DNA of 64,000 nucleotides from a virus (IMGVR_UViG_3300005327_000002:1-64000), one strand, 5' to 3'. Positions 8,706 through 57,616 are shown, counted from the stretch's first letter. The notes: generated by a model from the sequence alone, not told the origin. Translations and numbers: made by a program.

Positions 8706-8756
8706 GTCTGTCATAGCTTAGTGCTTGACACCCTGTGTGTCATAGAACACTCTATG
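8706..8756. promoter_or_regulatory. Overlapping divergent promoters with palindromic operator
   Basis: Plus: TTGACA(8725)-N17-CACTCT; minus: ATGACA(8743)-N17-TAAGCT; palindrome TGACAC-N5-GTGTCA 8726-8742. Confidence 0.7.
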
Positions 8757-14583: not shown

Positions 14584-14596
14584 GAGGGGAACGCAG

Positions 14597-21554: not shown

Positions 21555-22874
21555 CTACTTGGACGCCGCCCCGGCGGGGGCCAGCGCCGCCGGGGGCGCG
21601 GCGTCGGCCGGGATCGGCGCGTAGGTGACCTGGCACTGGGAGATGGACTTGCGCTTGGCCCAGGACGCGCAGACCCGGTAGCGGCCCGGGTACTTGTAGT
21701 CGTGGGTCAAGGTCGCCTTGCCGGTGGACTGGGAGACCTTCGCGGAGGACGTCTGCTGGTCGCCCCAGTCGATCACCACGTCAACGTCCTGCTGCGGCGT
21801 CATCTTGTACGCCTGCGCGGGCAGGGTGACCTCCAGGCTGACGCGGTTGGGGTGGGTCGCGTCGTCGGCGGCCGTGAAGGCCAGCACCGGCTTGTCCCCG
21901 GTGGCCGGGTCCGGCAGCGGCAGGGGCAGCGGGCCGATCTGGCGGCAGACGGTGGGCTCCGTCTTGTCGCACACCTTGATCGTGACCGGGTCGGCCACGG
22001 TGCCCGCGTAGGTGTGGCTGACCGTGGTCAGCTCCGCGACGTCCTGGACCGGGGTTCCGTCGCCCCAGTCGACGGTGACCGGGCCCAGGCCCGCGTTGTC
22101 GGCCATCAGCCGCGCGGTGCGGCGGGGCGACTCCCCGTCCACGCCGGTGACCACCACGGTGGCGGGCTCCGGGATCGGGCGGGGCACCTCCTCGCAGTCG
22201 CAGGAGGCCTGTGGCGGCGGGAGCGTGACGATGCCCTCCCAGAACGGTTCGTCCAGGGCCGGGTCAAAGGCGTCCGGGAGCCCGGCCGGGACGCCTTCGG
22301 ACAGCGTGATCTGGTAGGGGCCCTTGCCCCAGCGGGTGCCCGTCTTCGTCCGGCCGGTCATGACGAAGGACACTTCGTCGGTGCCGCCCATGGTCAGGTC
22401 GCCCGGGGTGCCGCCGGTCACCCAGGGGTAGACGCGGTAGTACCAGGCGCCCACGCCGTCCTCACCGGTGCAGGCGTCATTGCTGCCCCCGGCGGAGGCC
22501 CACACCTCCACGGCGTACCCGGCGGAGCACTCGATCTTGTTGTTGGCGAACAGGCCGATGACCTCACCGGTGGCGGGGTCGAAGGACGCGCGCAGGCCCG
22601 GGTTCATGATCCGGAAGCCGTCCATGCTGATCTGCGACCAGGTCACCTCCAGCGTGTGGAAGTTGACGGTGTCGCAGCCCGCGCGGGTGTAGCAGGGCTT
22701 GCCGTCGAAGCCGGTCTGGGTCCGGGTGTCGGCGGTGGTGACGTCGGCGGAGTCCGCGATGGTCGCAATGCAGCGGGAGACGACCGCGCAGGCCCCGTAG
22801 ATCGGGCGCCCGCAGGCGTCCACGGGGGTGATCCGGACCACTTCCCACTGGTCCGGGATGAGACAGGTACCCAT
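21555..22874 (-). CDS. Major tail (tube) protein with two C-terminal PKD/Ig-like domains
   Basis: RITPVDACGRP, A.EVW, Y.VYPWV, WGKGPY; VDWGDG...SHTY and IDWGD...THDYKYPG PKD signatures. Confidence 0.75.
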   Translation of the reverse strand: MGTCLIPDQWEVVRITPVDACGRPIYGACAVVSRCIATIADSADVTTADTRTQTGFDGKPCYTRAGCDTVNFHTLEVTWSQISMDGFRIMNPGLRASFDPATGEVIGLFANNKIECSAGYAVEVWASAGGSNDACTGEDGVGAWYYRVYPWVTGGTPGDLTMGGTDEVSFVMTGRTKTGTRWGKGPYQITLSEGVPAGLPDAFDPALDEPFWEGIVTLPPPQASCDCEEVPRPIPEPATVVVTGVDGESPRRTARLMADNAGLGPVTVDWGDGTPVQDVAELTTVSHTYAGTVADPVTIKVCDKTEPTVCRQIGPLPLPLPDPATGDKPVLAFTAADDATHPNRVSLEVTLPAQAYKMTPQQDVDVVIDWGDQQTSSAKVSQSTGKATLTHDYKYPGRYRVCASWAKRKSISQCQVTYAPIPADAAPPAALAPAGAASK

Positions 22875-23726: not shown

Positions 23727-25898
23727 TCACTTCTTCGTGGACCGGGTGGAGACGGCGGCGCTGGCGGCCAGCCCGGCCGCCGCCGACGTCTTGCCCGTCT
23801 TCAGGACCGGGGAGGACTTGCCCCCGGGGCCCACGGCCACGAACTCCACTTCGTAGGTGGTGTCCGCGTCCAGTCCGGTGAAGGTGTGGCTGGTCGAGCT
23901 GGCGCCCTTGGCGGTCACCGCCGACCAGGTCCCGGTGGAGGCCGGGGTCCGGTACCGCAGTTCGTAGCCGGTGATGTCTCCTCCGGTGGCGGGGGCGTCC
24001 CAGGTGGCCGTCAGGCTGGAGGATGTCGGGGTCCCGACGGCCGCAGACTCGGGGGAGGCGGGCGCCTCCGCCGCCGGAGCGGTGGGCGGGGGCCCGTAGC
24101 AGGGCCCCGGGTTCAGCGGGTACTCCGCGAAGCCGCCGGAGACGCCGCCCGGGCAGAACGGCACCTTGAAGGCCGCGATGGGCCCGCAGCGGTAGGCCAC
24201 GCAGTACATGTCCTCCGCGAACAGGCGGATCTCCCGGTTCTGGGACAGGAGCGCCTTGTCGTGCACCATCTCGATCTGGACGGACGGGCCGTTGATCGCC
24301 ACGAAGGCGCCCGCCTTGTACATCATGAACTCGAAGCTGGTCGGCCAGGCGGTGACCGCCCCGGCGGCGCCGATCGCGTCGTCCTGCCAGTCCCACACGA
24401 ACTGGGCGCGGATGCCCCGGGAGAGCAGGTACCGCTGCAGGTCGGCGTCGGTGATGTCGTAGCGGGAGCGGTCCCAGCCGCCCTTCTTCGACAGGTCGGC
24501 GCGCATGATCCCCAGCGCGAAGCGCGGGAAGACGGCCTCCAGGGTCGTGTTCAGCGCCAGGCGGCGGCGGGTGCGGATGTGCTCCGCCTGCAGCTCCACG
24601 AAGGAGAGCAGCGACTCGAACGCGCCCGGGCCGTGGGTGGCCCAGTCGGTCGCACCGGCGCCGGTGGTCATGTCGGTGTACGCGCCGCTGGTCGCCTTGA
24701 TCTTGTTGTAGACGGCCCGGATGCGCTTGGCGTTCAGGGACCGCTGGTGGGCGATCATCAGTTCCGCGATGGCCCGCTGAACCTGGGACGGGTCGATGCG
24801 GGCCTGCAGGATGCCGGTCTCCAGGCACAGGGAGCAGGCGGTGAGGCGGCACTCGTCCCAGCCGTCGGGGCAGGGGATGGAGACGCACGGCTTGTTGACG
24901 GCCACCGGCGGGTCGTCGGTGGTCATCATGTCTTCGGTGAAGCAGTACGACCGGTAGAGCGCGCTGTAATCCGTGTTGTGCGGCCACATGACGCCGCCAC
25001 GGGTGGTGACCATCGTCGGGAGGTCCAGCATCGCGTCCAGGCTGCCCTCAATCGGGCACAGCTCCGTGCGGATCTCCATGGGCCCGCACCAGGCCCAGCC
25101 GACGGTGGCGGCGGTGAGCGCGTTCATCTGCGCGGTGGGCAGCACGCTGGAGGCCGACAGGCCCGGCACCGAGTTCATGCGCTTCAGGAGCGCGGCGGCC
25201 AGGGAGCCGCCGGGCATGGAGAACTCGTCGGCGGCCGCGTCCATGCGGTGCCAGTCGCGCATCTCGTCCGCGATCAGGTGCGTCTCCGGGACCTGGCGCT
25301 GCAGGGAGACGACCGGGACCTGCCGACCGGCGCCGGAGCGGGCCAGGGTCCGGGAGCGGGAGATGACAGCGGCGGTCAGGTCCGTCATGGACCCGATGGT
25401 CTGGCCGGAGAAGAAGCCCGGCAGGTCGCTGGAGGCGACCATCTGAATGGCCTCCCGGCGCACCACCGGCAGGCTGGCGCCCTGGTGGCTGACCACGGTG
25501 CCGGTGTGCACGGAGCCGCCGGAGGCCGCCACGGTGCCGGAGCCGCCGGTGCCGTCGGACAGGACCTTCGTGGAGGCGATGCGCTCCGCCAGCTTGGCGG
25601 CGTGCTCCGCGCGGGCGGCCTTCTCCCGCTGCTCCTCGATCGCCTCCACCCGGACGGAGATCGCGTCGGAGATGTCCGCCAGAAGGGCGAACTCCACCAG
25701 CGCCTCCGGCGTGATGTCGGAGGCCTCCGGGTTCACGTTGCGGGCCTTCTCCGTGACGGCGGCGGTCACGGCCGTCAGGTCCACGGCGGAGTTGGACAGG
25801 ATCTCCGCCAACAGGAGCTTGCGGGCGTCGGCCTGGTCTTCGGGGCCCAGGTCCCCGTCTACGTCACGGAGTTGCGTGAGGATGTCGTCCAGAGTCAC
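23727..25898 (-). CDS. Major capsid protein (hexamer-like) with N-terminal scaffold-like coil and C-terminal fibronectin type III domain
   Basis: GWAWC.P.E...LC...S.D.MLDLP.....RGG, KPC..IPCP; FN3 signature SLTATWDAP...ITGYELRYR...FTGLDADTTYEV. Confidence 0.8.
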   Translation of the reverse strand: MTLDDILTQLRDVDGDLGPEDQADARKLLLAEILSNSAVDLTAVTAAVTEKARNVNPEASDITPEALVEFALLADISDAISVRVEAIEEQREKAARAEHAAKLAERIASTKVLSDGTGGSGTVAASGGSVHTGTVVSHQGASLPVVRREAIQMVASSDLPGFFSGQTIGSMTDLTAAVISRSRTLARSGAGRQVPVVSLQRQVPETHLIADEMRDWHRMDAAADEFSMPGGSLAAALLKRMNSVPGLSASSVLPTAQMNALTAATVGWAWCGPMEIRTELCPIEGSLDAMLDLPTMVTTRGGVMWPHNTDYSALYRSYCFTEDMMTTDDPPVAVNKPCVSIPCPDGWDECRLTACSLCLETGILQARIDPSQVQRAIAELMIAHQRSLNAKRIRAVYNKIKATSGAYTDMTTGAGATDWATHGPGAFESLLSFVELQAEHIRTRRRLALNTTLEAVFPRFALGIMRADLSKKGGWDRSRYDITDADLQRYLLSRGIRAQFVWDWQDDAIGAAGAVTAWPTSFEFMMYKAGAFVAINGPSVQIEMVHDKALLSQNREIRLFAEDMYCVAYRCGPIAAFKVPFCPGGVSGGFAEYPLNPGPCYGPPPTAPAAEAPASPESAAVGTPTSSSLTATWDAPATGGDITGYELRYRTPASTGTWSAVTAKGASSTSHTFTGLDADTTYEVEFVAVGPGGKSSPVLKTGKTSAAAGLAASAAVSTRSTKK

Positions 25899-26369: not shown

Positions 26370-28271
26370 GTGCGCCGTCCAGCATCACCCGGCCGCCGTC
26401 TCACGGCCTCCTCCATGCTGGACCCGCGCAGCGTCGGCGGGATCATCCCGACCCGGGGTGAGGGCAGCAGGCCCTGGGACCTCTACCGGCAGGTGCCGGA
26501 GCTGCGCTCCGGAATCCAGTGGCTGGCCGCCGCGATCAGCCGGGCCGACCTGTACGTGGCCCGCATCGAACCGGAGGGCCCGGTCCGGGAGGACGATCCG
26601 GAGATCACGTGCGTGCTGGACGAACTGTTCAGCACCGGCCCGTCCATGTCGGACATGCTGAAGCGGATGATCCTCCACCTGGAGTGCCCCGGGGAAACGT
26701 TCCTGGCGCCCTGGGTGGACGACCGGATGGGCCGGGTCTGGTCGGTGGCCTCCGCGAAGGAGCTGCGCTCCAACGGCTCCGGGCAGGTCGAGTACCAGCG
26801 GGACCTGAACGTGTGGGTGCCCTGCGACGGGAAGGTGGGCCGGATCTGGCACGCCGACCCGGAGGAGGGCTGGCGCGCCGACTCCCCCGTGGTCGCCATG
26901 GAGTCGATCCTGCACAACATCATCTCCCTGACCGCCCGCCTGACCGCCATCGGCCAGTCCCGGGCGGCGGGCAACGGCCTGCTGGGCATCGCCGACACCC
27001 TCTCCGTGCAGTCGCCCGCCAGCGAAGGCGTCAACCCGATCCACAGCCGCGACATCGCCACCTCCCTGGAGGACGCGATGGTGGCGCCCATGACGGACCG
27101 GGGCCTGGCCTCCTCCGTCGTGCCGCTGCTCCTGGTCGGCCCGAAGGAGGACCTGAAGGACGGCATCATCCGCGTCAATTTGGCCTCCGACCTGGACGCG
27201 CAGCTGCCCGACCAGCTGGACCAGGCGCTGCGCCGACTGGGCATCTCCCTGGCCATCCCGCCGGACGTGCTGACCGGCCTGGGGGAGGTGAACCACTGGT
27301 CCGGCGCGGTCATCCTGGAGGAGGCCGTGCAGGTCGCGGTGGAGCCCCGCACCGACACGGTGTGCGCGGCCTTCACGTCGATGTTCCTGCGGCCGCACGT
27401 GGAGAAGCTGGGCCTGGACCCGGCGTCGTACGCGGTGCTGGCCGACCTGATGGACCTCACCGTCAAGCCCGACAAGTCGCAGTCCGCGATGACCGCCCGC
27501 CAGCAGGGCCTGCTGACGGACGAAGCCTGGGCCCGCTACAGCGGCTTTGAGGAGTCCGACGTGCCGAAGGGCAAGGACCGGGAGCGCATCCTGCTGGAGC
27601 GCGTCATGCTCGCCGACCCGACCACCGCGCCGTTCATCCTGCCGAAGCTGGGCATCAGCGTGCCGGGCCTGACCGCCGCGCCGGTGCAGGCCGACCCGGA
27701 GGAGGACCTGCCGACGGCCGGGGACGTGGAGCCCGCGCTGGACACCGTCGCGCCGCCGGAGCGGCTGCCCACGCCCGGCCAGGGCGGCCGGGTGCTCCCC
27801 TCCCCGTCCCCCTCCCCCGAGATCGCCCCGCCGGACGCCGCGCACCGCACCCAGCCCCTGACCCGGGCGGCGCTGGCAGCGTCCGTGCTGACCGACCCGG
27901 AGGCGGAGGACGACGCGGCCAACGACGTGGAGGAGCAGGTGGTCACCGCCGTGGAGGCCTGCGTGCTGGCCGCCCTGGACCGCGCGGGGGCGCGCCTGCT
28001 GCGCTCCCACTCCCGGTCCCACCGGGCCGGGCTGCGGGAGGTGCCGAACGCTGAGATGCACCTGCACCTGCCGGTCACCGCGTCACTGAAGGCGCACATG
28101 CTGAAGGGCGCGTTCGCCCCGTGGGAGCAGTCCATGCCGCGCCTGGCACTGATGGCCGACTCCTACGTGGGGTACCTGCTGGACAATCGCGTCCGGCACT
28201 CCCGGGAGCTGCTGAAGGAGACCCTGTACCGGCTCTCCGACCACTGGGACCAGCAGGGAGAGGCGGCCTGA
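26370..28271 (+). CDS. Phage portal protein
   Basis: WDLYRQVPELR....WLA.AISR, W..DP......DSP, SRAAGNGLL, RRL...L.IPP.VLTG.G..NHWS. Confidence 0.8.
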   Translation: MRRPASPGRRLTASSMLDPRSVGGIIPTRGEGSRPWDLYRQVPELRSGIQWLAAAISRADLYVARIEPEGPVREDDPEITCVLDELFSTGPSMSDMLKRMILHLECPGETFLAPWVDDRMGRVWSVASAKELRSNGSGQVEYQRDLNVWVPCDGKVGRIWHADPEEGWRADSPVVAMESILHNIISLTARLTAIGQSRAAGNGLLGIADTLSVQSPASEGVNPIHSRDIATSLEDAMVAPMTDRGLASSVVPLLLVGPKEDLKDGIIRVNLASDLDAQLPDQLDQALRRLGISLAIPPDVLTGLGEVNHWSGAVILEEAVQVAVEPRTDTVCAAFTSMFLRPHVEKLGLDPASYAVLADLMDLTVKPDKSQSAMTARQQGLLTDEAWARYSGFEESDVPKGKDRERILLERVMLADPTTAPFILPKLGISVPGLTAAPVQADPEEDLPTAGDVEPALDTVAPPERLPTPGQGGRVLPSPSPSPEIAPPDAAHRTQPLTRAALAASVLTDPEAEDDAANDVEEQVVTAVEACVLAALDRAGARLLRSHSRSHRAGLREVPNAEMHLHLPVTASLKAHMLKGAFAPWEQSMPRLALMADSYVGYLLDNRVRHSRELLKETLYRLSDHWDQQGEAA

Positions 28272-32765: not shown

Positions 32766-33035
32766 TCAGGCGGTGGGGGTGTCGTCGGCGGGCTTGGCGA
32801 ACTCCGCCGTGTAGCGGGCCAGCCACCAGCCCAGGAACTCCACGGCCTTGTTCCGGGCCGCCTGCTCCGTCTGGAAGCGCTGCTGGGCCAGGCGCAGGGC
32901 GGCGCGGCCGGGCAGCTTGCAGTCCAGGACGTACATTCCGCCGGGGTCGCGGGTGGTGGCGTAGCCGACGGTGAACATCTCGGTGGTGCCGAGCGTCCCC
33001 ACGGTCGTGTTGCGGGTCTTCGTCCAGGCGAGCAT
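32766..33035 (-). CDS. Hypothetical protein
   Basis: SD GAGAGGG before ATG. Confidence 0.6.
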   Translation of the reverse strand: MLAWTKTRNTTVGTLGTTEMFTVGYATTRDPGGMYVLDCKLPGRAALRLAQQRFQTEQAARNKAVEFLGWWLARYTAEFAKPADDTPTA

Positions 33036-33106
33036 GTGCGTGCCCTCTCGGGTCGGTGGCGGGCCCCCGGCCGGGCGGCCGGGGGCAGTGGTGCGATCGT
33101 GCCGGG

Positions 33107-34150
33107 TCAGTCGCTGCCGGGCGGCCAGGGCTTGGACCAGCCCCACGCCGACGGGTCGTCCCCCAGGCAGTCCGGGCAGGAGCCGCAGTCGTTGCAGGAC
33201 TCGTACGGGAGCGGGGTGCGGTCGCCGTACTTCGACGCCGCCGGGTCGGCGCCCGGGTGGGCGTGCTCCGGGTGGACCAGCTTCGACGGGTCGCGGCGCT
33301 CCGGCTGCGGCCGGGCCGGGGCCTGGGCGCGTCCGGCGGCGGGCAGCTGCTGGCGGGACGGGGCATTCAGCGCGGCCAGCGCGGTGCGCAGCTGATGCTC
33401 CGTGGCGTCGTTCGGGTTGTGGCCGTAGGTCCGGGTGTACTGGTCCACCAGCTGCTCCCGGGACCAGCCCAGGGCGTGGGCGGCGTCCTTCAGCTGGCGC
33501 GCGGCCTGGGACCGTCCGGACGGCTGCTGCCCGGAGGGCTGGCGGCCCTGCTGCGGGCGCTGGCCCTGGCGCTGGCCTCCACGGTCCGGGCGCTGCCCCC
33601 GGGGCTGCTGGCGGCCGCGCTGCGCCCCGCCGTCGGCCATCTCCTGGCGGCCGCGCTCCATCATCCGGGCCTCATGCTCCGCCTTGTGGCGGTCGGGGGT
33701 GTCGGAGTCCCCGTCGGCCAGGCCGTCCACCGGGATGTGGAACAACGCGGTGAGCATGTACTTCAGGGCGGCGGTCTCCGCCTTCATGGTGGCCTTGTCC
33801 GCGACGTCCCCGCCCTCACCCCAGTACGCGGCGGTGAAGGTGGAGCCGTCGGGGCCCACCAGGGTGTACTCCACCCGGACGGCCACGTAGTTCTGGCGGC
33901 CGCGCTGCTCGGAGACGCGCTCACCGGCCACGGGGATGATGACCAGCTGGTGCTGGACCAGGGCCCGGTTGAAGGCCGCCAGCACGTCCTCAATGGACCT
34001 GTAGGAGTAGCTGCTGTGGTCGTTCCAGCCGGACTTGCCGATGCCCACCGTGCCGATGGTGTGCATCACGTCCAGGACGGCCTGGTGGACGGTGCGGGGC
34101 GCCGCCCCCCGGGAGGGGGCGGCGGTCGTGATGACTGCTTCGACGGTCAC
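33107..34150 (-). CDS. ERF-family single-strand annealing protein
   Basis: YSYRSIEDV..AFNRALVQHQL, GEGGD.ADKATMKA.TAALKY.L...FHIP. Confidence 0.85.
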   Translation of the reverse strand: MTVEAVITTAAPSRGAAPRTVHQAVLDVMHTIGTVGIGKSGWNDHSSYSYRSIEDVLAAFNRALVQHQLVIIPVAGERVSEQRGRQNYVAVRVEYTLVGPDGSTFTAAYWGEGGDVADKATMKAETAALKYMLTALFHIPVDGLADGDSDTPDRHKAEHEARMMERGRQEMADGGAQRGRQQPRGQRPDRGGQRQGQRPQQGRQPSGQQPSGRSQAARQLKDAAHALGWSREQLVDQYTRTYGHNPNDATEHQLRTALAALNAPSRQQLPAAGRAQAPARPQPERRDPSKLVHPEHAHPGADPAASKYGDRTPLPYESCNDCGSCPDCLGDDPSAWGWSKPWPPGSD

Positions 34151-34584
34151 GCGGCCAGGCCCATCCGGGCGGCGCGGGCGGTGGCGATGCCCTCACGGAC
34201 ACCGGCCAGCAGGCCGTCCGCGTCGTAGGTCTTGCGGGTCTGGCGCTCCGTCACGCTCTCGTCGGCGGAGGCCATGTCCTCCACGGAGGCGCGGAACATG
34301 GAGAAGAAGGCGGTGACCTTCGGCTGCGGGCCGCGCCACACACGGCGGGTGGTGCGGTGGCGGGTGATGCGGTCCAGGCGGAAGGTGCGCATCTCGCCGC
34401 GCAGCTGGCAGTAGGCGCGGATGACGATGTCCCCGGCCTTCGTGACGTCGATCGAGTGGATCTCGATCGTCCGGACCTCCACCTCCGGGGAGTCCTTCCC
34501 GCACTCGTAGGTGATGGTGACGGGGCGCAGGGCTTCGGCGGCGGTGGTGAGCTGGGCCAGGCGGCGGGTCTCGGTGATCGGCAC
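34147..34584 (-). CDS. Stand-alone WYL-domain protein
   Basis: VTITY...RTIE...AYCQLRGEMRTFRLDRI; coupled to ERF by GTGA. Confidence 0.85.
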   Translation of the reverse strand: MPITETRRLAQLTTAAEALRPVTITYECGKDSPEVEVRTIEIHSIDVTKAGDIVIRAYCQLRGEMRTFRLDRITRHRTTRRVWRGPQPKVTAFFSMFRASVEDMASADESVTERQTRKTYDADGLLAGVREGIATARAARMGLAA

Positions 34585-34682
34585 GGTAGGGTCGTCCTTG
34601 CTCTCGGTGGGACCGGGGGTGCTGGGCCCCTCCCGCGTGCTGGCGTGCGATCGGGTGGGGCCCTTCGTTGTACTGCCTTGTG

Positions 34683-34736
34683 ATAGTACACCGAAGCCCC
34701 GCCATGATGCAACATGATGTGGCATCTTGGCGGGGC
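34683..34736 (-). promoter_or_regulatory. Hairpin/operator/promoter unit 1
   Basis: Minus strand ATGCCACATCATGTTGCAT; TTGCAT-N18-TACTAT; arms gccccgcca/tggcggggc. Confidence 0.75.
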
Positions 34737-34750
34737 CGGGTTGTGGCCGG

Positions 34751-35716
34751 TCAGGCTTGCTTCTGGACCACCAGCAGGTCGCCCAGGCCGTATCCGGAGA
34801 CGTCCCAGCGCTGCTCCAGGAGCGCGCGGACCTCCTCCAGGCGGCGGGCGACCGTGCTGCCGTCGGAGTCCAGTGCGGCGTGGCTCTCGGTGTAGCCGAC
34901 CACCACGCCGCCGGAGGCCCGGGTGCGCACGCGAGCACCTTCCGACCAGCGGCGCCCACCCGGGGCGGTCTTGCTCAGGGCGACGCCGTGGCGGGCCAGG
35001 TAGCGACGGACGGCGTCGTAGGCGGCCTCCGGGCCCGGGCCGGTCGGGATGCGCGGGGAGGCGATGGCGTCCGGCGGCAGCTGGCGGGTGGAGCCGTCGG
35101 CGTAGTGCTCCACCCAGCCCAGGGAGCCGTCCACGTTGGGCTTGTGCGCCTGATCGACCTGCAGCAGGCGCCCGCACGCGGTGCACCAGCTGCCGGAGCG
35201 GTCGACCACGCGGCCCTGGGCGGTGCACAGCACCTCCGTGCGGCGGGTCGCGGGGTGGATCATCTGGTACTGCGTGCGGCGCTGCGGTGCGGTCACCGGC
35301 GCGGCGGCGGGCTTGGCGGTGGCGGGCACGGGCTCCTCCTGGGCGGCCGGGGCGGGGGTCTCCTCCGCCTCCTGCGTGGTGTCGGTGATGCCGGGCACGT
35401 CCTGGCGGACCCGGGGGCCGCTGTTGGAGATGCTGCAATCGGCCCGGCCGTTGAAGTTGTAGACGCTGACCCGGAACGGGAAGCCCTCCGCGTCCGTCGC
35501 TGCTTCGATCGCGTCGGCGTGACGGGCAACCGTGTTGTTGGCCTCCCGGCTGTAGAGGATCACCAGGGTGTACAGGCGCTCCCCGGCGGAGTTGTACTGG
35601 CCCGTCACGCTGAAGTCCCGGCGGCCCGCGCCGCCGCGCTGCTGCAGGCCCAGGGCGCGCAGCGCGCGGGCGACGGCGACGGTCGGGGTCTTCGCGGGGG
35701 CGGGCTTGCGGGCCAT
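34751..35716 (-). CDS. Hypothetical multidomain protein (MARKPAP...)
   Basis: SD GAAGGAG; leader shared with gene at 2438. Confidence 0.7.
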   Translation of the reverse strand: MARKPAPAKTPTVAVARALRALGLQQRGGAGRRDFSVTGQYNSAGERLYTLVILYSREANNTVARHADAIEAATDAEGFPFRVSVYNFNGRADCSISNSGPRVRQDVPGITDTTQEAEETPAPAAQEEPVPATAKPAAAPVTAPQRRTQYQMIHPATRRTEVLCTAQGRVVDRSGSWCTACGRLLQVDQAHKPNVDGSLGWVEHYADGSTRQLPPDAIASPRIPTGPGPEAAYDAVRRYLARHGVALSKTAPGGRRWSEGARVRTRASGGVVVGYTESHAALDSDGSTVARRLEEVRALLEQRWDVSGYGLGDLLVVQKQA

Positions 35717-35754
35717 CGGGGGCTCCTTCGGGTCGGTCGTGCTGGCGTCCCCCG

Positions 35755-35811
35755 ATGATGACACACGAAGACCCCTGATGCAACATCATGAGGCATCAGG
35801 GGTCTTCGTGT
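35755..35811 (-). promoter_or_regulatory. Hairpin/operator/promoter unit 2
   Basis: Minus strand ATGCCTCATGATGTTGCAT; TTGCAT-N17-CATCAT; arms acacgaagacccctg/caggggtcttcgtgt. Confidence 0.75.
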
Positions 35812-35815
35812 CCGG

Positions 35816-36238
35816 TCACGCCACCGTCGCGGGGTAGGTGCGCTCCTGGGCTCCGTCCGGGACGGGCAAGCTGTAGTGCTCGCCCTCCCGGGACGGCCAG
35901 GTGAACACCCGGATGTCCCGGCCGTCCACGGCCCACGGCATGGTGTCCCGGGTGTCCTGGGCCACCTGGTCGGCCAGGTCCTGCTCCGTGGCCGACCAGG
36001 CGGAGGAGCCGTACCTGCTGGCCCGGTCGGCGTCCCCGACGAACACCCGGTAGGTCAGGTCACGGGTGCCGGGCTGCGCGCCGCCGACGTGGTCCCAGCC
36101 CCAGCTGCCCATGGCCAGCAGGCTGGCGAAGGGGCAGCTGTCCAGCGCGGTCCGGGCGGCGGCGTGGTCGGTGCCCTTGTACAGCTCCGTCACGCTGCGG
36201 CCGTCGGAGGTGACCACGGAGTACATGCGGGCGCTCAC
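35816..36238 (-). CDS. Hypothetical protein
   Basis: GTGA coupling to HTH gene. Confidence 0.6.
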   Translation of the reverse strand: MSARMYSVVTSDGRSVTELYKGTDHAAARTALDSCPFASLLAMGSWGWDHVGGAQPGTRDLTYRVFVGDADRASRYGSSAWSATEQDLADQVAQDTRDTMPWAVDGRDIRVFTWPSREGEHYSLPVPDGAQERTYPATVA

Positions 36239-36468
36239 CGGGCGGCCTGCGTGCGGGCGCGGGGCTTGGAGCGGCCCGGGAACTGGGTGCCGTAGCGGCG
36301 CCGGACGGTCTCCCGGGTCACGCCCAGGATGCCGGAGACGGAGTTGACCACGCCGTCCACGCGGGTGGCCAGGATCTCCCGGGCCAGACCGTCGATCTTC
36401 TCCTGCAGGTCGGCCTGCTGCTGCTGCAGGCCTTCCAGCTCCTGAATCTTGCTCTCGGTGGTGTCCAT
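36235..36468 (-). CDS. Small coiled-coil + HTH protein, probable leaderless repressor of the repeated operator
   Basis: VNSVSGILGVTRETVRRRY HTH; ATG 6 nt after -10 box, no SD. Confidence 0.7.
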   Translation of the reverse strand: MDTTESKIQELEGLQQQQADLQEKIDGLAREILATRVDGVVNSVSGILGVTRETVRRRYGTQFPGRSKPRARTQAAR

Positions 36469-36474
36469 GGCCCC

Positions 36475-36580
36475 ATGATGGAGCACGAAGACGCTTAATG
36501 CAACAGGGTGCGCCATTGGGCCTACAGACGGTAACCCAATGCCACATCCTGTTGCATTGAGGGGACTTGCGTGTCATGCT
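36475..36580. promoter_or_regulatory. Divergent operator/promoter pair (units 3 and 4)
   Basis: Minus TTGCAT(36503)-N17-CATCAT; plus ATGCCACATCCTGTTGCAT with TTGCAT(36552)-N17-CATGCT. Confidence 0.75.
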
Positions 36581-36622
36581 GGCTTCTGCCAGCACGGAAC
36601 AGCCCGCCGAGAGGAACCCGAC

Positions 36623-37123
36623 ATGACCGCCTCCGAGACCCCCGCCCGCACCGGGATGCACGTCCGCACCGAGAACGGCACCCGCACCCTGGTGACCACC
36701 CGGGCCGCCCTGGACGAGATGAACGCGGCCATGATGGACAAGGCCGTGAAGCGCACCGTCCGGGAGATGTCCGCCAGCCGCGACAGCGCCGACATCACGT
36801 ACCGGGACGGTCGCAAGGGCCGCAAGGTCAGCCTGCGCCCGGCCAGCGCCCAGGACGTGGCCGACCTGACCCCCGCGCCGGAGACGGAGCCGGAGGCGCC
36901 CGTGGAGAGCGCCCCGGCGGCGCCTGAGTGGCGCACCCTGAAGGGCCTGCGCGTCGGGGACACCGTCCGCCTGTGGTCGGGCAACCGGAAGACCGGACCG
37001 ACCGGAGAGGGCCGGGAGGCCACCCTGGTGGAGATCCGCACCGGCTGGGTCTTCCAGTACACCGACACCGGATGGACGGGCTGGATCGGCGGCGCCGCGT
37101 CCAAGCACTGGGTCTCCGTCTGA
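36623..37123 (+). CDS. Hypothetical protein with SH3/KOW-like C-terminal half
   Basis: SD GAGAGGAA; LRVGDTVRL motif. Confidence 0.65.
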   Translation: MTASETPARTGMHVRTENGTRTLVTTRAALDEMNAAMMDKAVKRTVREMSASRDSADITYRDGRKGRKVSLRPASAQDVADLTPAPETEPEAPVESAPAAPEWRTLKGLRVGDTVRLWSGNRKTGPTGEGREATLVEIRTGWVFQYTDTGWTGWIGGAASKHWVSV

Positions 37124-37189
37124 CCGTCACCGCCCCACGGGGCGCAGCCGCCCGGCTGCGCCCCTGCCCTTACCGAGAGGAACCGAACG

Positions 37190-37273
37190 ATGGCCCGCAA
37201 GACACAGCAGCCCCGCAGGCTGACCGACGCGCCCGGCTGGGTCCGCGACGTCCTGGACGGGGGGCTGCGGTGA
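37190..37273 (+). CDS. 27-aa small ORF (MARKTQQPRRL...)
   Basis: SD GAGAGGAA; GTGA overlap with next ORF. Confidence 0.45.
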   Translation: MARKTQQPRRLTDAPGWVRDVLDGGLR

Positions 37274-37461
37274 GCGCGGGTGTCGCCTGCCGGGTGCGGG
37301 CGCACCGGGGTCTGTGGCGGGTGACGGTCCGCAAGGCCAACTACTCCGCCTTCAACGGCGGGCGCCGGACGCCGTCGGCCTGGTCCCAGCTGCGCTGCCC
37401 GGCCTGCTCCACGTCCTGGCGGAGCAAGGGCGCCTACGTGGACAACGTCCCCGACGCCTGA
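37270..37461 (+). CDS. Small zinc-binding protein (C..H...CPAC)
   Basis: NYSAFNG..RTPS.WS..RC..C...WR pattern. Confidence 0.55.
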   Translation: MSAGVACRVRAHRGLWRVTVRKANYSAFNGGRRTPSAWSQLRCPACSTSWRSKGAYVDNVPDA

Positions 37462-37468
37462 CCTGCGC

Positions 37469-37522
37469 CGAAGACCCCCAATGCCACATGATGTTGCATT
37501 GGGGGTCTTCGTGTGTCATTCT
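37469..37522 (+). promoter_or_regulatory. Hairpin/operator/promoter unit 5
   Basis: ATGCCACATGATGTTGCAT; TTGCAT-N17-CATTCT; arms cgaagaccccca/tgggggtcttcg. Confidence 0.78.
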
Positions 37523-37560
37523 GGTCTCTCGACCGCACGACCGACCCGAAGGAGCACGAC

Positions 37561-38460
37561 ATGGCGACCATCTCCCCGCGCATGCAGGACGCGATCCGCA
37601 CCGGAGCCGACGGCGCGGTGGTCTTCTGCGAGCGCGCCGACACGGAGTCCGCCCTGATCCGGCACGGCCTGATCCACCCGGTGCAGTCCACCCTCACCGA
37701 GTACGGCCAGCAGGTCCTGGCGGGCCTGCTGGAGGCCGACGCGGCGGCGCAGGCCGCCACCGGCGGCACAGTGCACCGGCCGCAGTCCTGCGCCCAGGAC
37801 GCCGACGCCCCGGCGGAGTGGGAGGGCTTCGCCTTCAGCCGGGTGGCGGTGGGCGACTACGTCCGCTTCCAGACCCGGGAGACCGGCTTCGACGGGCGCG
37901 GCCTGTACTACCGGGAGGGCTGGGTGATCCGCGTCACGGAGTCCTCCATGGTGGTCAGGGTCGGCCACAACGAGACCGCCCGCATCAGCGCGCAGTCCTT
38001 CATGGAGCGGGATGTGGCCCGCAAGCCCGGGATCAAGGTCCCCTACCACCCCGACTTCGCGCACCGGGTCGTCCGGGGCGCGAACGTGACCGTGATCTGG
38101 TCGCCCTTCCCGATCATCGACGCGGCGGCCGTGGTGGACAACTTCCTGGACGCCCGCTACCGGGACGTGGAGACCGTCGCGGAGGCCGCCCGCTTCACGA
38201 AGGCGGAGGGGGCCGACTTCTCCGGCTGGGTGGTGCGCAGCGGGCTGGACTACTCGGACCCGCGACGGACCCGGAAGGCCGCCCTGGAGCAGCTGGAGAT
38301 GGCGGTGGCGGACTACTTCGGCGCGGCCGTGGACTACCTGCGCCAGGGCCCGCAGCCGGTGGAGGACCGGCCCACCCCGATGGCCGCGAAGGTGGCGGCC
38401 TTCCAGGAGCTGGCGAAGGAGCTGGAGGCGGCCGGGCTCAACGTGCGCGCCCTGCTCTGA
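37561..38460 (+). CDS. Hypothetical multidomain protein
   Basis: SD GAAGGAG; shared leader. Confidence 0.7.
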   Translation: MATISPRMQDAIRTGADGAVVFCERADTESALIRHGLIHPVQSTLTEYGQQVLAGLLEADAAAQAATGGTVHRPQSCAQDADAPAEWEGFAFSRVAVGDYVRFQTRETGFDGRGLYYREGWVIRVTESSMVVRVGHNETARISAQSFMERDVARKPGIKVPYHPDFAHRVVRGANVTVIWSPFPIIDAAAVVDNFLDARYRDVETVAEAARFTKAEGADFSGWVVRSGLDYSDPRRTRKAALEQLEMAVADYFGAAVDYLRQGPQPVEDRPTPMAAKVAAFQELAKELEAAGLNVRALL

Positions 38461-38470
38461 CCCCTGCCGG

Positions 38471-38525
38471 ACAACGACCCCTGATGCGACATGATGTTGC
38501 ATCAGGGGTCGTTGTGTGTCATGAT
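38471..38525 (+). promoter_or_regulatory. Hairpin/operator/promoter unit 6
   Basis: ATGCGACATGATGTTGCAT; TTGCAT-N17-CATGAT; arms acaacgacccctg/caggggtcgttgt. Confidence 0.78.
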
Positions 38526-38584
38526 GGCGCTTCGACCGAAACACCCGCCGCGCCCGCCAGCCGGGCCGCCGAAAGGACACCGAC

Positions 38585-39025
38585 ATGAACGCCCCCGTCT
38601 GCGGCTACTCCGCCGCCCACACCGCCGCAGCAGTCCCCGCCGACCTCCGGGTGGGCATGGGCCCGCTGGGCCAGGTCCCCTGCTGCACCCCCTGCGCCGA
38701 CACCTACGACCGGCTGAACGGGGTGCCCGGTGAGCGCCTGCCGCTGGCCGCCGTCCGGTTCGCGGTCGTCGCCACGGAGGCGACCTACGACGAAGACGAC
38801 GCCGAGATCATCGCGGTGACCGGCCCCCTGGCCTTCGGCGACAGCCTGGAGCAGGCCCTGAAGGCGCTGCCCGGGGAGACCGTCGGGGAGGTGTACGCGG
38901 TGTGGGCCTCCGCCGACGTGGAGCAGCGCGCGGGCGGCTGCCGCCCCGACTCCCTGGTGATGATCAACGTCTACGGGGACGCCATGGCGCTGGCCGACAC
39001 CTACCTGCAGATCGTGGCGATCTGA
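38585..39025 (+). CDS. Hypothetical protein, paralog family member A
   Basis: SD GAAAGGA; AVW...RPD.L...GD...LA..YL. Confidence 0.7.
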   Translation: MNAPVCGYSAAHTAAAVPADLRVGMGPLGQVPCCTPCADTYDRLNGVPGERLPLAAVRFAVVATEATYDEDDAEIIAVTGPLAFGDSLEQALKALPGETVGEVYAVWASADVEQRAGGCRPDSLVMINVYGDAMALADTYLQIVAI

Positions 39026-39399
39026 TGGCCCGCCGCGCCTTCGTCCGCACCGCCGTGGCCAACCAGGTGCACGACCTGGTGGAGGAGCGCCTGGCCCCCC
39101 TGCAGATCCCCGCCGGGAACCTGTCCTTCGGCTACGCCCTGGCGGAGGACATCCTGGCCCTGGTCCGGGGCCAGGAGCCCGACACCGGCCGGAACCTGGA
39201 CCGGGAGTGCTACGGCACCCTGTGCAAGGTCGCGCCGACCTGGCGGGCCCGCCTGTCCCCCACCCCGGAGGACGAGACCGGCGGCACGTGGCTGGGCGCC
39301 TGCGGCCGCCACCTGGCCTGGGTGTGCGACCAGATCTCCGACGGGGAGAACGTCGACCTGGACGTGGAGCGCATCCGCGCCTCCCTGACCGCCCGCTGA
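39025..39399 (+). CDS. Hypothetical Zn-binding protein (C..C...CGRH)
   Basis: TGATG coupling. Confidence 0.6.
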   Translation: MARRAFVRTAVANQVHDLVEERLAPLQIPAGNLSFGYALAEDILALVRGQEPDTGRNLDRECYGTLCKVAPTWRARLSPTPEDETGGTWLGACGRHLAWVCDQISDGENVDLDVERIRASLTAR

Positions 39400-39421
39400 A
39401 CTACCCGAGAGGACACAGCAC

Positions 39422-39733
39422 ATGACCGAGCACTACGCCGTCCAGAAGACCACCGCCACCGAGACCGCCGACGGGGCCGCCTTCGTGCTGGACGGGGACG
39501 GCCGGGTCTCCCTGGGCCTGGTCAACGCGGTGCACCGCATCGGCGCCTGGGCCGGGAACGTCTTCGCGGTGTGGACCGCCGACGGCCGGGACGCGGCGCT
39601 GGAGGCGCAGCGGACCCGCAGGCCCGACGCCCTGTACACCGTGACCGACTCCGGCGACCTGCTCCAACTGGCGGACCGCTACCTGGAGTTCGTGGTCCGC
39701 ATCGACCGGGCGACCGGCGGATGGGCCGCCTGA
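39422..39733 (+). CDS. Hypothetical protein, paralog family member B
   Basis: SD GAGAGGA; same motif. Confidence 0.7.
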   Translation: MTEHYAVQKTTATETADGAAFVLDGDGRVSLGLVNAVHRIGAWAGNVFAVWTADGRDAALEAQRTRRPDALYTVTDSGDLLQLADRYLEFVVRIDRATGGWAA

Positions 39734-40077
39734 TGGGCGCCTTCCTGTCGGCCAGCCGCTACGCGGTGCGCCGGGTGGTCCCGCGCGGGACCACCGGCGG
39801 CGGCGGCTGGGACCTGGTCCTGGAGCAGGACGGTCCCGTGTGGACCGGGGACAGCTGGTCGCGGGGCGCCAACGCGCTGCAGCTGCCGCTGGGCGGCGTG
39901 CTGGCGGTGTGGGCGGACCCGGCCTGGGAGGAGCGGCCGCCGTCCCGGCCGGACCGCCTGTACGCGGTGCTGGGCAGCGGGGACCTGGTGGCGATGGCGC
40001 CGGAGTACCTGACCGGGGTTCAACTCCCGTACTGGGAGCGTCACGGAACGCAGTTGCCCGTGGTGATCAAGGGGTAA
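39733..40077 (+). CDS. Hypothetical protein, paralog family member C
   Basis: TGATG coupling; same motif. Confidence 0.65.
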   Translation: MGAFLSASRYAVRRVVPRGTTGGGGWDLVLEQDGPVWTGDSWSRGANALQLPLGGVLAVWADPAWEERPPSRPDRLYAVLGSGDLVAMAPEYLTGVQLPYWERHGTQLPVVIKG

Positions 40078-40094
40078 GATCCCCGAAATGCAAC

Positions 40095-40122
40095 AGGGCC
40101 CCCGCCCGGAGGCGGGGGCCCT
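40095..40122 (+). terminator. Terminator ending accessory operon
   Basis: agggcccccgcc-cgga-ggcgggggccct. Confidence 0.7.
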
Positions 40123-40254
40123 TCACACTCGGTGCCGGTGAACTTTGGCGAGCGACCCGGCGCCCCGAACGTAAGACGTGGACCACCGTACAGGGCCCGT
40201 GCGCGGTTGCGCACCTGGGGACCCGTCGGTGCGTCGGCGTCGTAGGAGCAGCGC

Positions 40255-41367
40255 ATGTCCTTCACCGCCATCACCTGGGCCCTGGAAGACGCCCCCGTGG
40301 CCGACACCGTGGAGCGGGCCATCCTGGTCAAGCTGGCCAGCCACGCCGACCACGACGGTCGGGCCGCCTTCCCGTCGAAGAAGACCATGGCCCGCGTGGC
40401 CCTGTGCGACCCGAAGACCGTCCAGCGCAAGCTGGCCGCGATGGTCCGCCGGGGGCTGATCGCCCTGGGCGACCAGGAGGCCGCCCGCATGATCCCGAAG
40501 CACCTTCGCCCCACGGTCTACGACCTCCTGATTCCGGCGGCCTGGTACGGGCCGGAGCAGCTGGAGCGCGTCAACCGGGACCGGGTCTACGTCGGCCTGC
40601 CGCCGCTGGACGCTCTGGACCGCCCCGGCCTGGCCCCCGCCCCGGAGCGCGCGAAGCGGTCGGACGCCGGGGTGCCCCGCCCGCGCCGGGACGCCCAGGA
40701 GACCGGGGACGGAGTTGTCCACAGGGGGGACTCACAGTCCCCCCACCCGGGGACTGTGAGTCCCCCCACCCGGGGACTGACAGTCCCCCAAACCAGTACT
40801 AGTAACCAGTCCAGTGAACCTGTCCCTCCGTCTCCCGCCCGCAGGGCGGCAGGTGCGGGTAGTGGGCGCGCGGGCGCGGGGCGGCCCGCTTCGCGGGGAG
40901 ATGGGGAGGCAGCGACCGGAGCGACCGAAGGCCTGGTGATCCACGACCGCCCCGACGGGGCCGTGGCGGCCGTCCTGGAGGCCGTGCCCGGCATCGTGCG
41001 GGCGCTGACCCCCGGACAGCTGCGCCTGGCCTCCAGGGCCGTCCTGGGCGTCCTCCAGGGGCCCTTCCAGGACCCGGCCGCCCTGGCCGCCCACCTGGAG
41101 GCCCGGCTGGCGCCCATGTCGCTGACCGACGACTGCGACCCCCGGGCGTTCATCCGCGACCCCTACGCCTGGCTGATCTCCCAGCTGCCGGACATCACCG
41201 TGTGCCAGGGCGGCTGCGGGCGCACCGTCCACGCCACGGCCGGGCGCAGCGGGCTGCGGTGCGCTTACTGCTCGGACGGCGTCGACCCGGCCCGGGCGCT
41301 GGCGGAGCTGGCGCGGGAGAACGCGGCCGTACTCGGCGACGGGTGCCCTCCGCCGGACTGGGCGTGA
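40255..41367 (+). CDS. HTH_36-type replication initiator-like protein
   Basis: MSFTAITWAL..AP....ERAILVKLA.HAD..G..AFPS..T.A....C...TVQR.L..M...GLI; internal iterons; C-terminal Cys motif. Confidence 0.75.
   Translation: MSFTAITWALEDAPVADTVERAILVKLASHADHDGRAAFPSKKTMARVALCDPKTVQRKLAAMVRRGLIALGDQEAARMIPKHLRPTVYDLLIPAAWYGPEQLERVNRDRVYVGLPPLDALDRPGLAPAPERAKRSDAGVPRPRRDAQETGDGVVHRGDSQSPHPGTVSPPTRGLTVPQTSTSNQSSEPVPPSPARRAAGAGSGRAGAGRPASRGDGEAATGATEGLVIHDRPDGAVAAVLEAVPGIVRALTPGQLRLASRAVLGVLQGPFQDPAALAAHLEARLAPMSLTDDCDPRAFIRDPYAWLISQLPDITVCQGGCGRTVHATAGRSGLRCAYCSDGVDPARALAELARENAAVLGDGCPPPDWA
40715..40810 (+). repeat. DnaA box plus three 17-bp palindromic iterons at 23-bp period (candidate origin)
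   Basis: TTGTCCACA 40715-23; GGGGACT(CAC/GTG/GAC)AGTCCCC at 40726, 40749, 40772; AT-richer tract follows. Confidence 0.75.
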
Positions 41368-41618
41368 GTTTCACCGGATCGGGTGACTAACGGTCGGGGG
41401 CTGCCGCCCGGGCGGCGTATCGTCGGCGGCTCCGGTGCTCCCGGGGGGCTGGTCCTCCGGGCGGGCGCCGACCCGCCGCCCCCGGGCGGCCCTCCGCGCA
41501 CCCCACGGCGGCCATCACCCCGGCCGCAGGTCCGCAGCCGCCACGGCCCCCAGGCATCCGGCGGTGCGGACCCCCTCCCCGCGCGGTCGGCCTCCCGGGG
41601 GCGCCGCGCTTCCCGGGC

Positions 41619-57500: not shown

Positions 57501-57616
57501 GGGGCCATCTTGACCTTGAAGGCGGGCATCCGCGCCAGCTTGCGGGCCAGGTCCTGCTGGAACTTGGCCGTGTCCGCTTCTACTTCAACCGCCGCTGTGG
57601 CGTAGGGAGTTGACAC
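54545..57616 (-). CDS. Tape measure protein
   Basis: Ala/Gly-rich helical protein, DLLDTFSEY tape-measure motif, periodic W/F repeats, LARGAIVTGPTTALIGEAG.E.VIPL C-terminus. Confidence 0.9.
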   Translation of the reverse strand: MSTPYATAAVEVEADTAKFQQDLARKLARMPAFKVKMAPDLNGFARAVRDAIGGITASIALTADARELLQGLRRDLDRASQDLTADVEVTADTDGLVQEIESTRVPDVEVQVDADTGDVAREIDRLDGEVVQIDVIADTSRAESEVRDVGDAAQRVQVEVTADTSRAEAEIDGIEADPVTVEVDADTEGIDAAGEEAGGGFMASFGASAKAGAAAAVAAAAAITVGVFLKVADTVREQFTEAFSQMMDRQVLEGSLRAALGASDDAAHEAGTVAGHLYTKGVTDSVEEGADAVKQVLRQGLLNFDTTGLGLEGLSTKLQDVATVLEGDVGGAARAVSTILKNQLAGSAQEAMDILIRGQQLNVGIADDLLDTFSEYPVMFHQLGLNASDAMGLLNQGLQKGAKDSDALADGITQFFEKATTEAQGTTDALKAIGIDFDDLSAQVLKGGDSARAGLGKVLDRIRELGPGSQDAVNAVRALFGDPGITQGEAFFNLNLQTAAQSLGDVAGASDKAADALRDNLGTKLQSVARNARTLLGGIFSGDFSGIGEFEASVEDALPALKTAISQAADNLKKAWPDLKETGARVIGSLIDGAKTYGPPLAKAALDLGGQLIEKVAQGVEDAAPKVLSAVFSLGDKIGSSIDQWGPIAAKVVLFFAALPTVIAVAIGAAIVGAVVGLAGKIGEWLAPIGTAVADFFTVTVPGWFSSLGDLLVQGLTAAWTAAASFVTETLPVWFQAVVDFFAALPGRIAYALGALAGMLVSVVIGAVQFLIQAIPAAIDAVLQWFKDLPGRIGSALSSLGSMIASVFESAINFVAVTLPSWGDAVLAWFRALPGRAYNALASLGSSVGDAVSSALSWAGQKASEGIDRIAGFFSGLPGKIGSALSSFGSTIWSGLKAMINQGIDLINKFADGFNDFSPVDIPHIPRLARGAIVTGPTTALIGEAGAEVVIPLTNRQRALQLADLSGLTAMIQRRDGQQPDGGAQVTQTFVIQSQAQDSRLLANLVAARVGSLFGSSVQGAWV

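Follow-up and report, generated by a model that had tools for sequence, protein, structure and literature searches.

Six copies of a 19-bp palindrome with promoter-like geometry, four of them at the apex of hairpins with co-varying arms, in the early region of a tailed actinophage

Textbook examples of control in an early region include phage lambda, with its OL/OR operators, tL/tR terminators and N antitermination, and the IncP plasmids, with the global operators of KorA and KorB. Phage phiC31 carries conserved inverted repeats (CIR), which are the operators of its repressor c and were reportedly first described by Ingham et al. in 1994 and Wilson et al. in 1995. The repressor sites of phiC31 are many and dispersed (PMC4557955). 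In T4-type phages, repeated promoter and stem-loop cassettes (PeSLs) precede ORFans; their promoter and terminator activities have been tested, and modules are proposed to be shuffled at these seams (Arbiol et al. 2010, PMC2839356; Comeau et al. 2014, PMC4122927). Stoperators, known from Cluster A mycobacteriophages and R4-like Streptomyces phages, are asymmetric 13- to 14-bp sites of a monomeric two-domain repressor, which block elongation and are neither promoters nor located in hairpins (PMC9283540, PMC6550527, PMC10276819). Cluster O mycobacteriophages carry more than 30 copies of a 17-bp dyad repeat, TGTTCGGNNNCCGAACA, of unknown function, about one-third of them inside genes, and recombination between the repeats explains deletions (PMC4351075). 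Here we describe an array of six copies of a 19-bp imperfect palindrome, ATGCNNCANNNTGTTGCAT, between nucleotides 34,683 and 38,525 of IMGVR_UViG_3300005327_000002:1-64000. This window covers the first 64 kb of a virus record in IMG/VR that is 80,091 bp long and has 73% G+C.

The 19-mer occurs at 34707, 35778 and 36498 on the minus strand and at 36539, 37481 and 38484 on the plus strand, exactly as quoted and oriented in an initial annotation made from the sequence alone. The sites are confined to one region, and a motif scan of the whole 80,091-bp record returned no others. By chance, 0.06 occurrences would be expected in the 64-kb window, and none of 100 shuffles reached 11 strand-matches. 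All six copies end in TTGCAT, which points to the next gene, to the left in three cases and to the right in three; on both strands of the genome (160 kb), this hexamer was found only seven times, in the six units and at 40088 on the minus strand. The units and the right end of the array are as follows:

34683..34737, minus strand: unit heading the WYL-Erf operon; hairpin 34695-34737, 19-bp core 34707-34725, TTGCAT 34707-34712, -10-like box TACTAT 34683-34688, 18-nt spacer, 95-nt leader
35755..35811, minus strand: unit heading a 321-aa gene; hairpin 35763-35811, core 35778-35796, CATCAT 35755-35760
36475..36516, minus strand: unit without arms; core 36498-36516, CATCAT 36475-36480, 6 nt before the ATG of the P0001 gene
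36539..36580, plus strand: unit heading a 166-aa gene; core 36539-36557, CATGCT 36575-36580
37465..37522, plus strand: unit heading a 299-aa gene; hairpin 37465-37516, core 37481-37499, CATTCT 37517-37522
38471..38525, plus strand: unit heading a four-gene operon; hairpin 38471-38515, core 38484-38502, CATGAT 38520-38525
40088..40122, strand not assigned: right end of the array, where an isolated half-site, ATGCAACAGGG, abuts a 12-bp GC hairpin at 40095-40122

In every unit, TTGCAT was separated by 17 nt (18 nt in the copy at 34707) from a -10-like box of the form CATNNT or TACTAT, and TGT preceded this box in four of the six. Computed from the box positions, the site is centred at about -39 and the 19-mer spans about -48 to -30. 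The promoter-side half, TGTTGCAT, is invariant, with no change in 48 positions; the upstream half (consensus ATGCCACA) has four changes and, read on the opposite strand, gives TGGCAT in three copies and AGGCAT, CGCCAT or TCGCAT in one copy each, but never TTG or TTGCAT. Both points agree with the initial annotation, and the asymmetry between the half-sites is suggestive, although, coming from six related copies, not decisive. The half-site at 40088 is the same as the start of copy 36498 on the plus strand and has no promoter; it may have been left over from a seventh unit, or it may serve on purpose as a single half-site.

The four outer copies each place the 19-mer at the apex of a hairpin of 43 to 52 nt, with a free energy (dG) of -36 to -43 kcal/mol (34695-34737, dG -35.9, z -4.4; 35763-35811, dG -42.9, z -6.3; 37465-37516, dG -42.8, z -7.3; 38471-38515, dG -42.8, z -7.2). 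All four hairpins start 3 to 14 nt past the preceding stop codon; the distance is 4 nt from the stop of the 140-aa gene for copy 35778, 3 to 4 nt from the stop at 37461 for copy 37481, and about 10 nt from the stop at 38460 for copy 38484. When arm positions 1 to 12 outside the core were compared among the four copies, 47 of the 48 cells were paired, and 10 of the 12 positions showed at least two Watson-Crick pair types. As previously noted, the arm pairs change yet stay paired, and it is therefore the complementarity, not the sequence, that is maintained. The 3′ arm is at the same time the promoter spacer, so that the hairpin takes in both the -35 hexamer and the spacer and leaves the -10-like box just outside, on its 3′ side.

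The two central copies, at 36498 and 36539, keep the spacer-like 3′ sequence, lack a complementary 5′ arm and form no hairpin of their own (z -0.4); jointly they make up one long inverted repeat of about 90 nt at 36483-36574 (dG -50.6, z -6.25). This pair had been thought to flank the 77-aa P0001 gene. In fact, both copies lie within a single 154-bp divergent gap, whose neighboring genes are:

36235..36468, minus strand: P0001, 77 aa, candidate binder of the palindrome
35816..36238, minus strand: P0002, 140-aa ORFan, whose GTG start overlaps the P0001 stop (GTGA)
36623-37123, plus strand: P0003, 166-aa ORFan, first gene of the group headed by the copy at 36539

Arms are thus found only in the four copies into which an upstream gene reads, and within this genome no other observation speaks as strongly for an action of the arms on the transcript that arrives from upstream. 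That gene ends in this array make use of hairpins is shown by two plain GC hairpins without the motif, at 37139-37164 and at 40095-40122, the second of which has a T-rich tail on the minus strand.

P0001 consists of an N-terminal coiled-coil helix, a conserved helix-turn-helix (HTH)-like segment, SGILGVTRETVRRRY, and a basic tail. Its family is tiny, comprising P0004 (79% identical) and P0005 (45% identical), each on a short metagenomic contig. The SGILGVTRETVRRRY signature is kept in all three members, and the most conserved block across them, GILGVTRETVRR, fits the common A-x-x-L-G-V-S-x-x-T-V-x-R helix-turn-helix signature. An AlphaFold2 model of the monomer consisted of a long and then a short helix (pLDDT 77), a search in VIA returned generic long helices only (Z at most 5.7), and feature matches in the Atlas scored 0.88, which we take as a lead only. 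With ESMFold2, P0001 is predicted to form a homodimer: the ipSAE was 0.64 against 0.00 for the best control, no less than 94% of contacts recurred between the runs, and the pLDDT of the partner was 77 or more. The mark applied was reached by 20 of 30 proteins whose solved structures are pairs of one chain and by 1 of 23 solved as single chains; as a custom three-row alignment was used, these counts hold approximately. Such a dimer fits a dyad site, the binding itself being putative. Because the ATG of P0001 lies 6 nt past the -10-like box, which leaves no room for a ribosome-binding site (RBS), its mRNA is probably leaderless, as the initial annotation had supposed, and the over-called N terminus of P0004 (MPHHGSM) implies the same CAYCAY-N6-ATG arrangement in that relative. 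About 20% of Streptomyces mRNAs are leaderless, with AUG preferred (PMC6742748). Owing to the GTGA overlap, P0001 and P0002 would be translationally coupled. The GntR regulator encoded elsewhere in the window was also considered as the binder of the 19-mer and rejected, since the motif is missing upstream of the GntR gene, where repeats of another kind occur. Nor is the 19-mer known to fit the host regulator boxes for LexA, Crp, DasR, BldD, Nur, Rex, Zur or IdeR.

The repeated unit extends beyond the roughly 50 bp first ascribed to it. Copies 35778 and 37481, which lie on opposite strands, were identical at 74 of 89 positions over a stretch that starts with the 5′ arm, takes in the leader and reaches the RBS, and the differences in their arms were compensated. 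In addition, the leader and RBS of copy 35778 were identical at 36 of 40 positions to those of the gene at 2438-5590, 33 kb away, which has its own canonical promoter (TTGACA-17-TAAGCT, 2373-2401). The leader is, to judge from this alignment, a portable module used with two different promoters. The products of the gene at 2438-5590 and of the gene behind copy 35778 both start with MAR. Within the array, the 146-, 103- and 114-aa proteins are paralogous to one another (E 1e-6 to 1e-10), and P0003 and the 299-aa protein have a 69-aa domain in common. Given these paralogues and the identity among the units, the array appears to have grown, at least partly, by local duplication of a gene together with its module; no sign of foreign-cargo composition was seen, GC3 being 0.87 to 0.98 throughout. 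The idea of cassettes into which new genes can be slotted is already present in the PeSLs, and the combination of functions in both the PeSLs and the phiC31 CIR sites; within this genome the evidence points to duplication on the spot.

For comparison with phiC31, its sites were re-derived de novo from NC_001978. Sixteen CIR sites were obtained, nearly all of them a few nucleotides past stop codons, and at least four (6098, 27543, 32544 and 34782) form the apex of longer hairpins (dG -27 to -38 kcal/mol), whose arms differ yet pair. The copy at 27543 lies 40 nt upstream of the repeated early-promoter motif of the phage. Besides the CIR, another repeated motif, CCGGGTTGCCGACT, is found at the starts of seven early genes. 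An operator inside a co-varying, terminator-like hairpin therefore already exists. Both phages are of the high-G+C Streptomyces type, and both repeat a short palindrome in intergenic gaps just past stop codons, often in hairpins. However, the motifs are unrelated (CTACTCACGTGAGTAG against ATGCCACATGATGTTGCAT), and a tblastn search of this genome found no homologue of repressor c (best E 1.6) and none of the sigma-like gp12. Moreover, the 16 sites of phiC31 are spread genome-wide, including the virion genes, with promoters as a separate motif, whereas the six sites of this phage are gathered in one 3.8-kb divergent region, with one operator half coinciding with the -35 hexamer in every copy.

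The array also resembles the PeSLs in being built of compact, repeated intergenic cassettes upstream of ORFans, in which a promoter, putative in this phage, is combined with a stem-loop. In PeSLs, the stem-loop may overlap the -35 or sit between -35 and -10; here, four of the six units have a stem-loop past the upstream stop that encloses the -35 and the spacer. In contrast, PeSLs have sigma-70-consensus promoters and no operator; they are AT-rich and occur about 50 times per genome in virulent myoviruses of Gram-negative hosts. The boxes of this array are weak, its hairpins present a palindromic putative protein site at their tip, and its six copies are arranged divergently around a regulator gene. 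The array is most likely a compact variant of arrangements already known from phiC31 and T4-like phages, and, should the explanation preferred below hold, it would link two phenomena, CIR sites and PeSLs, that have been described separately.

Stoperators and the Cluster O dyads are looser analogies. Like stoperators, the sites here are many intergenic copies of one motif oriented with transcription, with an operator at the early promoter (PMC9283540, PMC6550527, PMC10276819); however, they are quasi-palindromic sites, every one of which falls together with a promoter-like element. The Cluster O repeats are likewise a dyad motif, mostly intergenic, for which a dimeric regulator has been suggested, and that cluster has divergent leaderless promoters too (PMC4351075). 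The Cluster O dyads, however, have no fixed relation to promoters or hairpins. With lambda and the IncP Kor systems the array shares textbook features: a central regulator gene between divergent early operons, with recombination to the left and replication to the right. It would also share operators that overlap promoter hexamers, several promoters under one repressor, and a burst upon entry into a naive cell. It differs in showing no CI, Cro or Kor homology, and it would pair internal terminators with new repressible promoters instead of overriding them by an antiterminator.

The sequence itself shows the sites, their uniqueness and geometry, the hairpins with their co-varying arms, and the gene layout; from these we infer that the units act as promoters, which protein regulates them and in which sense, and that transcripts end at the hairpins. 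In the explanation that we consider best, and to which we give about an even chance, dimeric P0001 binds a shared operator that overlies the -35 in each of six host-type promoters, and the hairpins end, attenuate or process the upstream transcripts. The stretch would be the bidirectional early control region of an actinophage of temperate type that has conjugation-like genes as well. Each unit would be a promoter for host RNA polymerase, with TTGCAT as the -35, a spacer of 17 to 18 nt, CATNNT or TACTAT as the -10, and a common leader and RBS. The -35 hexamer would form the right half of the quasi-palindromic operator, so that a dimeric regulator seated there would shut out sigma region 4. The regulator would most likely be P0001, since one of the units stands before its own, probably leaderless gene; the six promoters, that of P0001 included, would be repressed together and would fire together in a cell without P0001. 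Behind a gene, the sequence 5′ of the operator would have been made complementary to the promoter spacer, and the upstream transcript would then end in a hairpin of 21 to 24 bp with the operator at its tip. This hairpin would terminate, attenuate or stabilize the transcript, and transcription would restart under the same control, the restart at repressible promoters doing the job that antitermination does in lambda. We are clearly more doubtful of the wider scheme, in which a module of about 90 bp has three tasks, to end the transcript before it, to bind the regulator at the tip of its hairpin and to start transcription anew; a tiny, leaderless, self-controlled dimer governs a bidirectional early regulon without an antiterminator; the module spreads by duplication, its 5′ arm being re-tailored for each gene; and establishment genes are expressed in a burst after entry by virion or by TraB-like mating.

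Several results weigh against this preferred explanation. TTGCAT is a weak -35 box, which agrees with TTGACA in no more than TTG and with the TGAC motif of Streptomyces in no more than TG, and five of the six -10-like boxes are CANNNT, not TANNNT, with C for T at -12 (Streptomyces features from PMC6742748). The units match only 7 of the 12 positions of the Escherichia coli sigma-70 consensus, and a simple sigma-70 consensus scan called none of the six units, although it also missed the canonical TTGACA-17-TAAGCT at 2373-2401. Since the six copies are homologous duplicates, their shared geometry does not amount to six independent observations. None of the four unit hairpins is followed by a U-tract. 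P0001 had no sequence match in Pfam, PHROG, NCBIfam or the PDB, profile search included, and Foldseek against the PDB found nothing at E ≤ 0.001, the best match being Fis (E 2.4). Finally, no relatives of the array region were retrieved in the database searches. The predicted homodimer fits the repressor that had been proposed to bind the palindrome, a protein with an HTH-like sequence signature and a putative repressing action; likewise, the proposal that the hairpins end the previous transcript agrees with their placement behind genes, termination itself being conjectural.

The stems, which have no U-tract, may terminate transcription, be cut by RNase III, or only stabilize 3′ ends. In the best-surviving rival explanation, which we nevertheless consider rather unlikely, the promoter and operator are as described, but the hairpins are not terminators; they would be RNase III sites or 3′-end stabilizers that cut up a long early transcript, as RNase III cuts the long early transcript of T7 into separate messages, or else supercoil-tuned DNA cruciforms. 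The stems are indeed long (21 to 24 bp), nearly perfect and without U-tracts, and the location of the -35 and spacer within the palindrome means that extrusion of a cruciform would hide the promoter. Among 1,640 mapped transcript 3′ ends of S. lividans, moreover, only 194 have a U-rich terminator motif, and stems mark many others (PMC6742748). On the other hand, the plain hairpins at 37139-37164 and 40095-40122 resemble ordinary terminators or attenuators. A search of the palindromes against Rfam yielded sub-threshold miRNA-like matches only.

The main uncertainty of the preferred explanation, a repressor over the -35, is the sign of regulation. Because the boxes are weak and the site centre lies near -39, the palindrome could instead be an activator site, at which a dimer of P0001 or of another protein would recruit RNA polymerase to weak delayed-early or middle promoters under positive autoregulation, on the model of Mor and C at the middle and late promoters of Mu or of class II CRP sites; we consider this unlikely. 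The -35 and the -12 position are systematically non-consensus, even though the same genome builds a perfect TTGACA-17-TAAGCT on a near-identical leader, so that the weak boxes could mean dependence on an activator, a further point against repression. A centre at about -39 is near class II geometry, and the order of P0001, an N-terminal dimerization helix followed by a C-terminal HTH-like segment, is that of Mor and Fis. Two leads, and no more than leads, are a Mor-family cluster among the weak structural neighbors in the Atlas (TM 0.60) and the Fis chains that top the non-significant Foldseek list (E 2.4). What speaks for repression is that the entire TTGCAT lies inside a half-site, which favors competition with sigma region 4, and that the invariant promoter-side TTG suggests reading by sigma. 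In addition, the TGT upstream of the -10 in four of the six units makes an extended -10 that could work unaided, and a divergent, self-controlled small regulator central in an early region is the classic repressor/Cro layout.

Less probable still, in our estimate, is that the units are mainly recombination seams of about 90 bp, of the PeSL kind, at which Erf or host recombination duplicates, deletes, inverts and swaps cassettes, regulation being secondary. Units identical at up to 74 of 89 positions, leader and RBS included, would suit this explanation, as would the recurrence of the leader on a gene 33 kb away, the paralogous genes within and between cassettes, the Erf gene in the array itself, and the reported action of PeSLs in this manner (PMC2839356, PMC4122927). 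However, recombination alone does not explain a palindromic core, a fixed -35/-10 geometry, or arms that co-vary only behind genes, and the searches retrieved no relative in which insertions or deletions at the units could be seen. As a process, recombination of the PeSL kind could take place at the modules under any of the explanations considered here.

The least probable rival that we retain treats the units as promoters only, the 19-mer being the upstream part of a promoter for a particular host sigma factor, its dyad symmetry arising incidentally from the hairpin. In favor of it are the high uniformity of the boxes, which are non-canonical, and the number of sigma factors in Streptomyces, about 60 (PMC6742748). 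Nevertheless, the two central copies keep the 19-bp dyad without arms, the half-site at 40088 stands alone without a promoter, and no sigma factor gene was found in the phage genome, all of which makes this explanation improbable. Iterons or a replication origin were rejected, since the sites are 0.7 to 1 kb apart at gene boundaries and unclustered. Roles as single-stranded-DNA hairpins had been offered as an alternative; promoters of the Frpo/ssi type, known from conjugative plasmids, were rejected, since these need both the -35 and the -10 in the stem of a hairpin of the transferred strand and every hairpin here has its -10-like box outside, on the 3′ side. TraB-type transfer moves double-stranded DNA (PMC4447253).

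The remaining genes served by the array, and the gene beyond its right end, are:

34751..35716, minus strand: 321-aa gene, the N-terminal half of whose product matches phrog_15616, of unknown function
34193-34587, minus strand: WYL-domain-only protein, 131 aa, without an HTH, putatively driven by the unit at 34707
33107-34150, minus strand: Erf single-strand annealing protein, after the WYL gene and putatively driven by the same unit
37191-37274 and 37270-37461, plus strand: mini-ORFs of 27 aa and 63 aa (the latter Cys-rich) after P0003
37561..38460, plus strand: 299-aa ORFan
38585..40077, plus strand: four-gene operon encoding proteins of 146, 124, 103 and 114 aa
40255-41367, strand not assigned: Rep-like HTH_36 gene

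The leftward run continues past Erf with two small ORFs, and the layout is lambda-like, with recombination genes on the left and a replication initiator on the right. PADLOC, Pfam and PHROGs, applied to the array genes, recognized only WYL, Erf and one unnamed PHROG, PADLOC contributing WYL only; the 63-aa ORF at 37270-37461 was screened against Pfam. The 146-, 103- and 114-aa proteins, P0003 and the 299-aa protein are all ORFans. The stretch is a bidirectional early region with no identifiable anti-defence island, and its genes, of the recombination and replication side, are not demonstrably the accessory or possible anti-defence cargo suggested by the initial annotation. WYL domains are the ligand sensors of PafBC and of defence regulators; here, a stand-alone copy lies beside a recombinase.

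Searches for relatives of the array returned little. P0001 and the 321-aa protein had no match in IMG/VR, the P0001/P0004 alignment none in metagenome or genome contigs, and P0005 none in metagenome contigs. For the portal protein, only three short IMG/VR contigs were found (52-54% identity), and no genome contigs. A megablast of 33000-41400 against INPHARED gave no match, and a tblastn search of phages and plasmids with P0001 produced no meaningful match. When IMG/VR was scanned for the motif followed by CAT, 20 single matches were obtained, 16 of them in contigs of 29-34% G+C and none above 63% G+C, and we judged them to be due to chance; the divergent-pair pattern had no match.

If the preferred explanation is true, the unit would be a very compact regulatory part for high-G+C actinomycetes, with terminator, operator and promoter in about 60 to 90 bp and a cognate regulator of 77 aa. 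It would also offer an alternative to antitermination for organizing a phage early region, and would be a case where the same stretch of DNA serves as operator and as -35 box, placed at the apex of the preceding transcript's hairpin.

The ends of the source record share a 60-bp overlap, which indicates a circular assembly. Its genome encodes a large terminase, primase/polymerase proteins, a DNA polymerase and a minor tail protein, and the following features lie in the window:

26370-28271: portal
23727-25898: capsid
21555-22874: major tail protein
54545-57616: tape measure
14138-16792, plus strand: 884-aa protein, TraB-like by language-model features, with weak matches by hidden Markov model (HMM)
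7998-8672, minus strand: GntR regulator, near the 884-aa gene

The replicon is a complete tailed actinophage and not a plain plasmid. By HMM, the 884-aa protein gave a weak FtsK/EccC-like Walker region and a C-terminal winged-helix match only; by language-model features in the Atlas, it fell among actinobacterial TraB/FtsK "major plasmid transfer protein" clusters (0.96-0.98). A virion module together with a TraB-like gene suggests a possible phage-conjugative hybrid. The simultaneous firing in a repressor-free cell that had been proposed as zygotic induction would accordingly concern entry by infection at least as much as by mating. The nearest cultured relatives are distant, the portal being about 30% identical to those of Mycobacterium and Gordonia phages. 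Because the few homologues found for the phage's ORFans are in Embleya and Streptomyces, the host of this possibly hybrid phage appears to be Streptomyces-like. A tyrosine recombinase at genome position 74100-75191, borderline at 27.2 bits against a Pfam cut-off of 27.1, could be an integrase or a dimer resolvase, and the lifestyle accordingly may be integrating or plasmid-like. Near the genome end, a leftward run of small genes includes a protein with a ProQ C-terminal-like domain (77554-78015, E 4.5e-13). The GntR promoter region at 8700-8760 has repeats of its own, GTCTGTCATAG and GTGTGTCATAG...CTATGTGTAC, unlike the 19-mer, which are probably a separate, kor-like control circuit.

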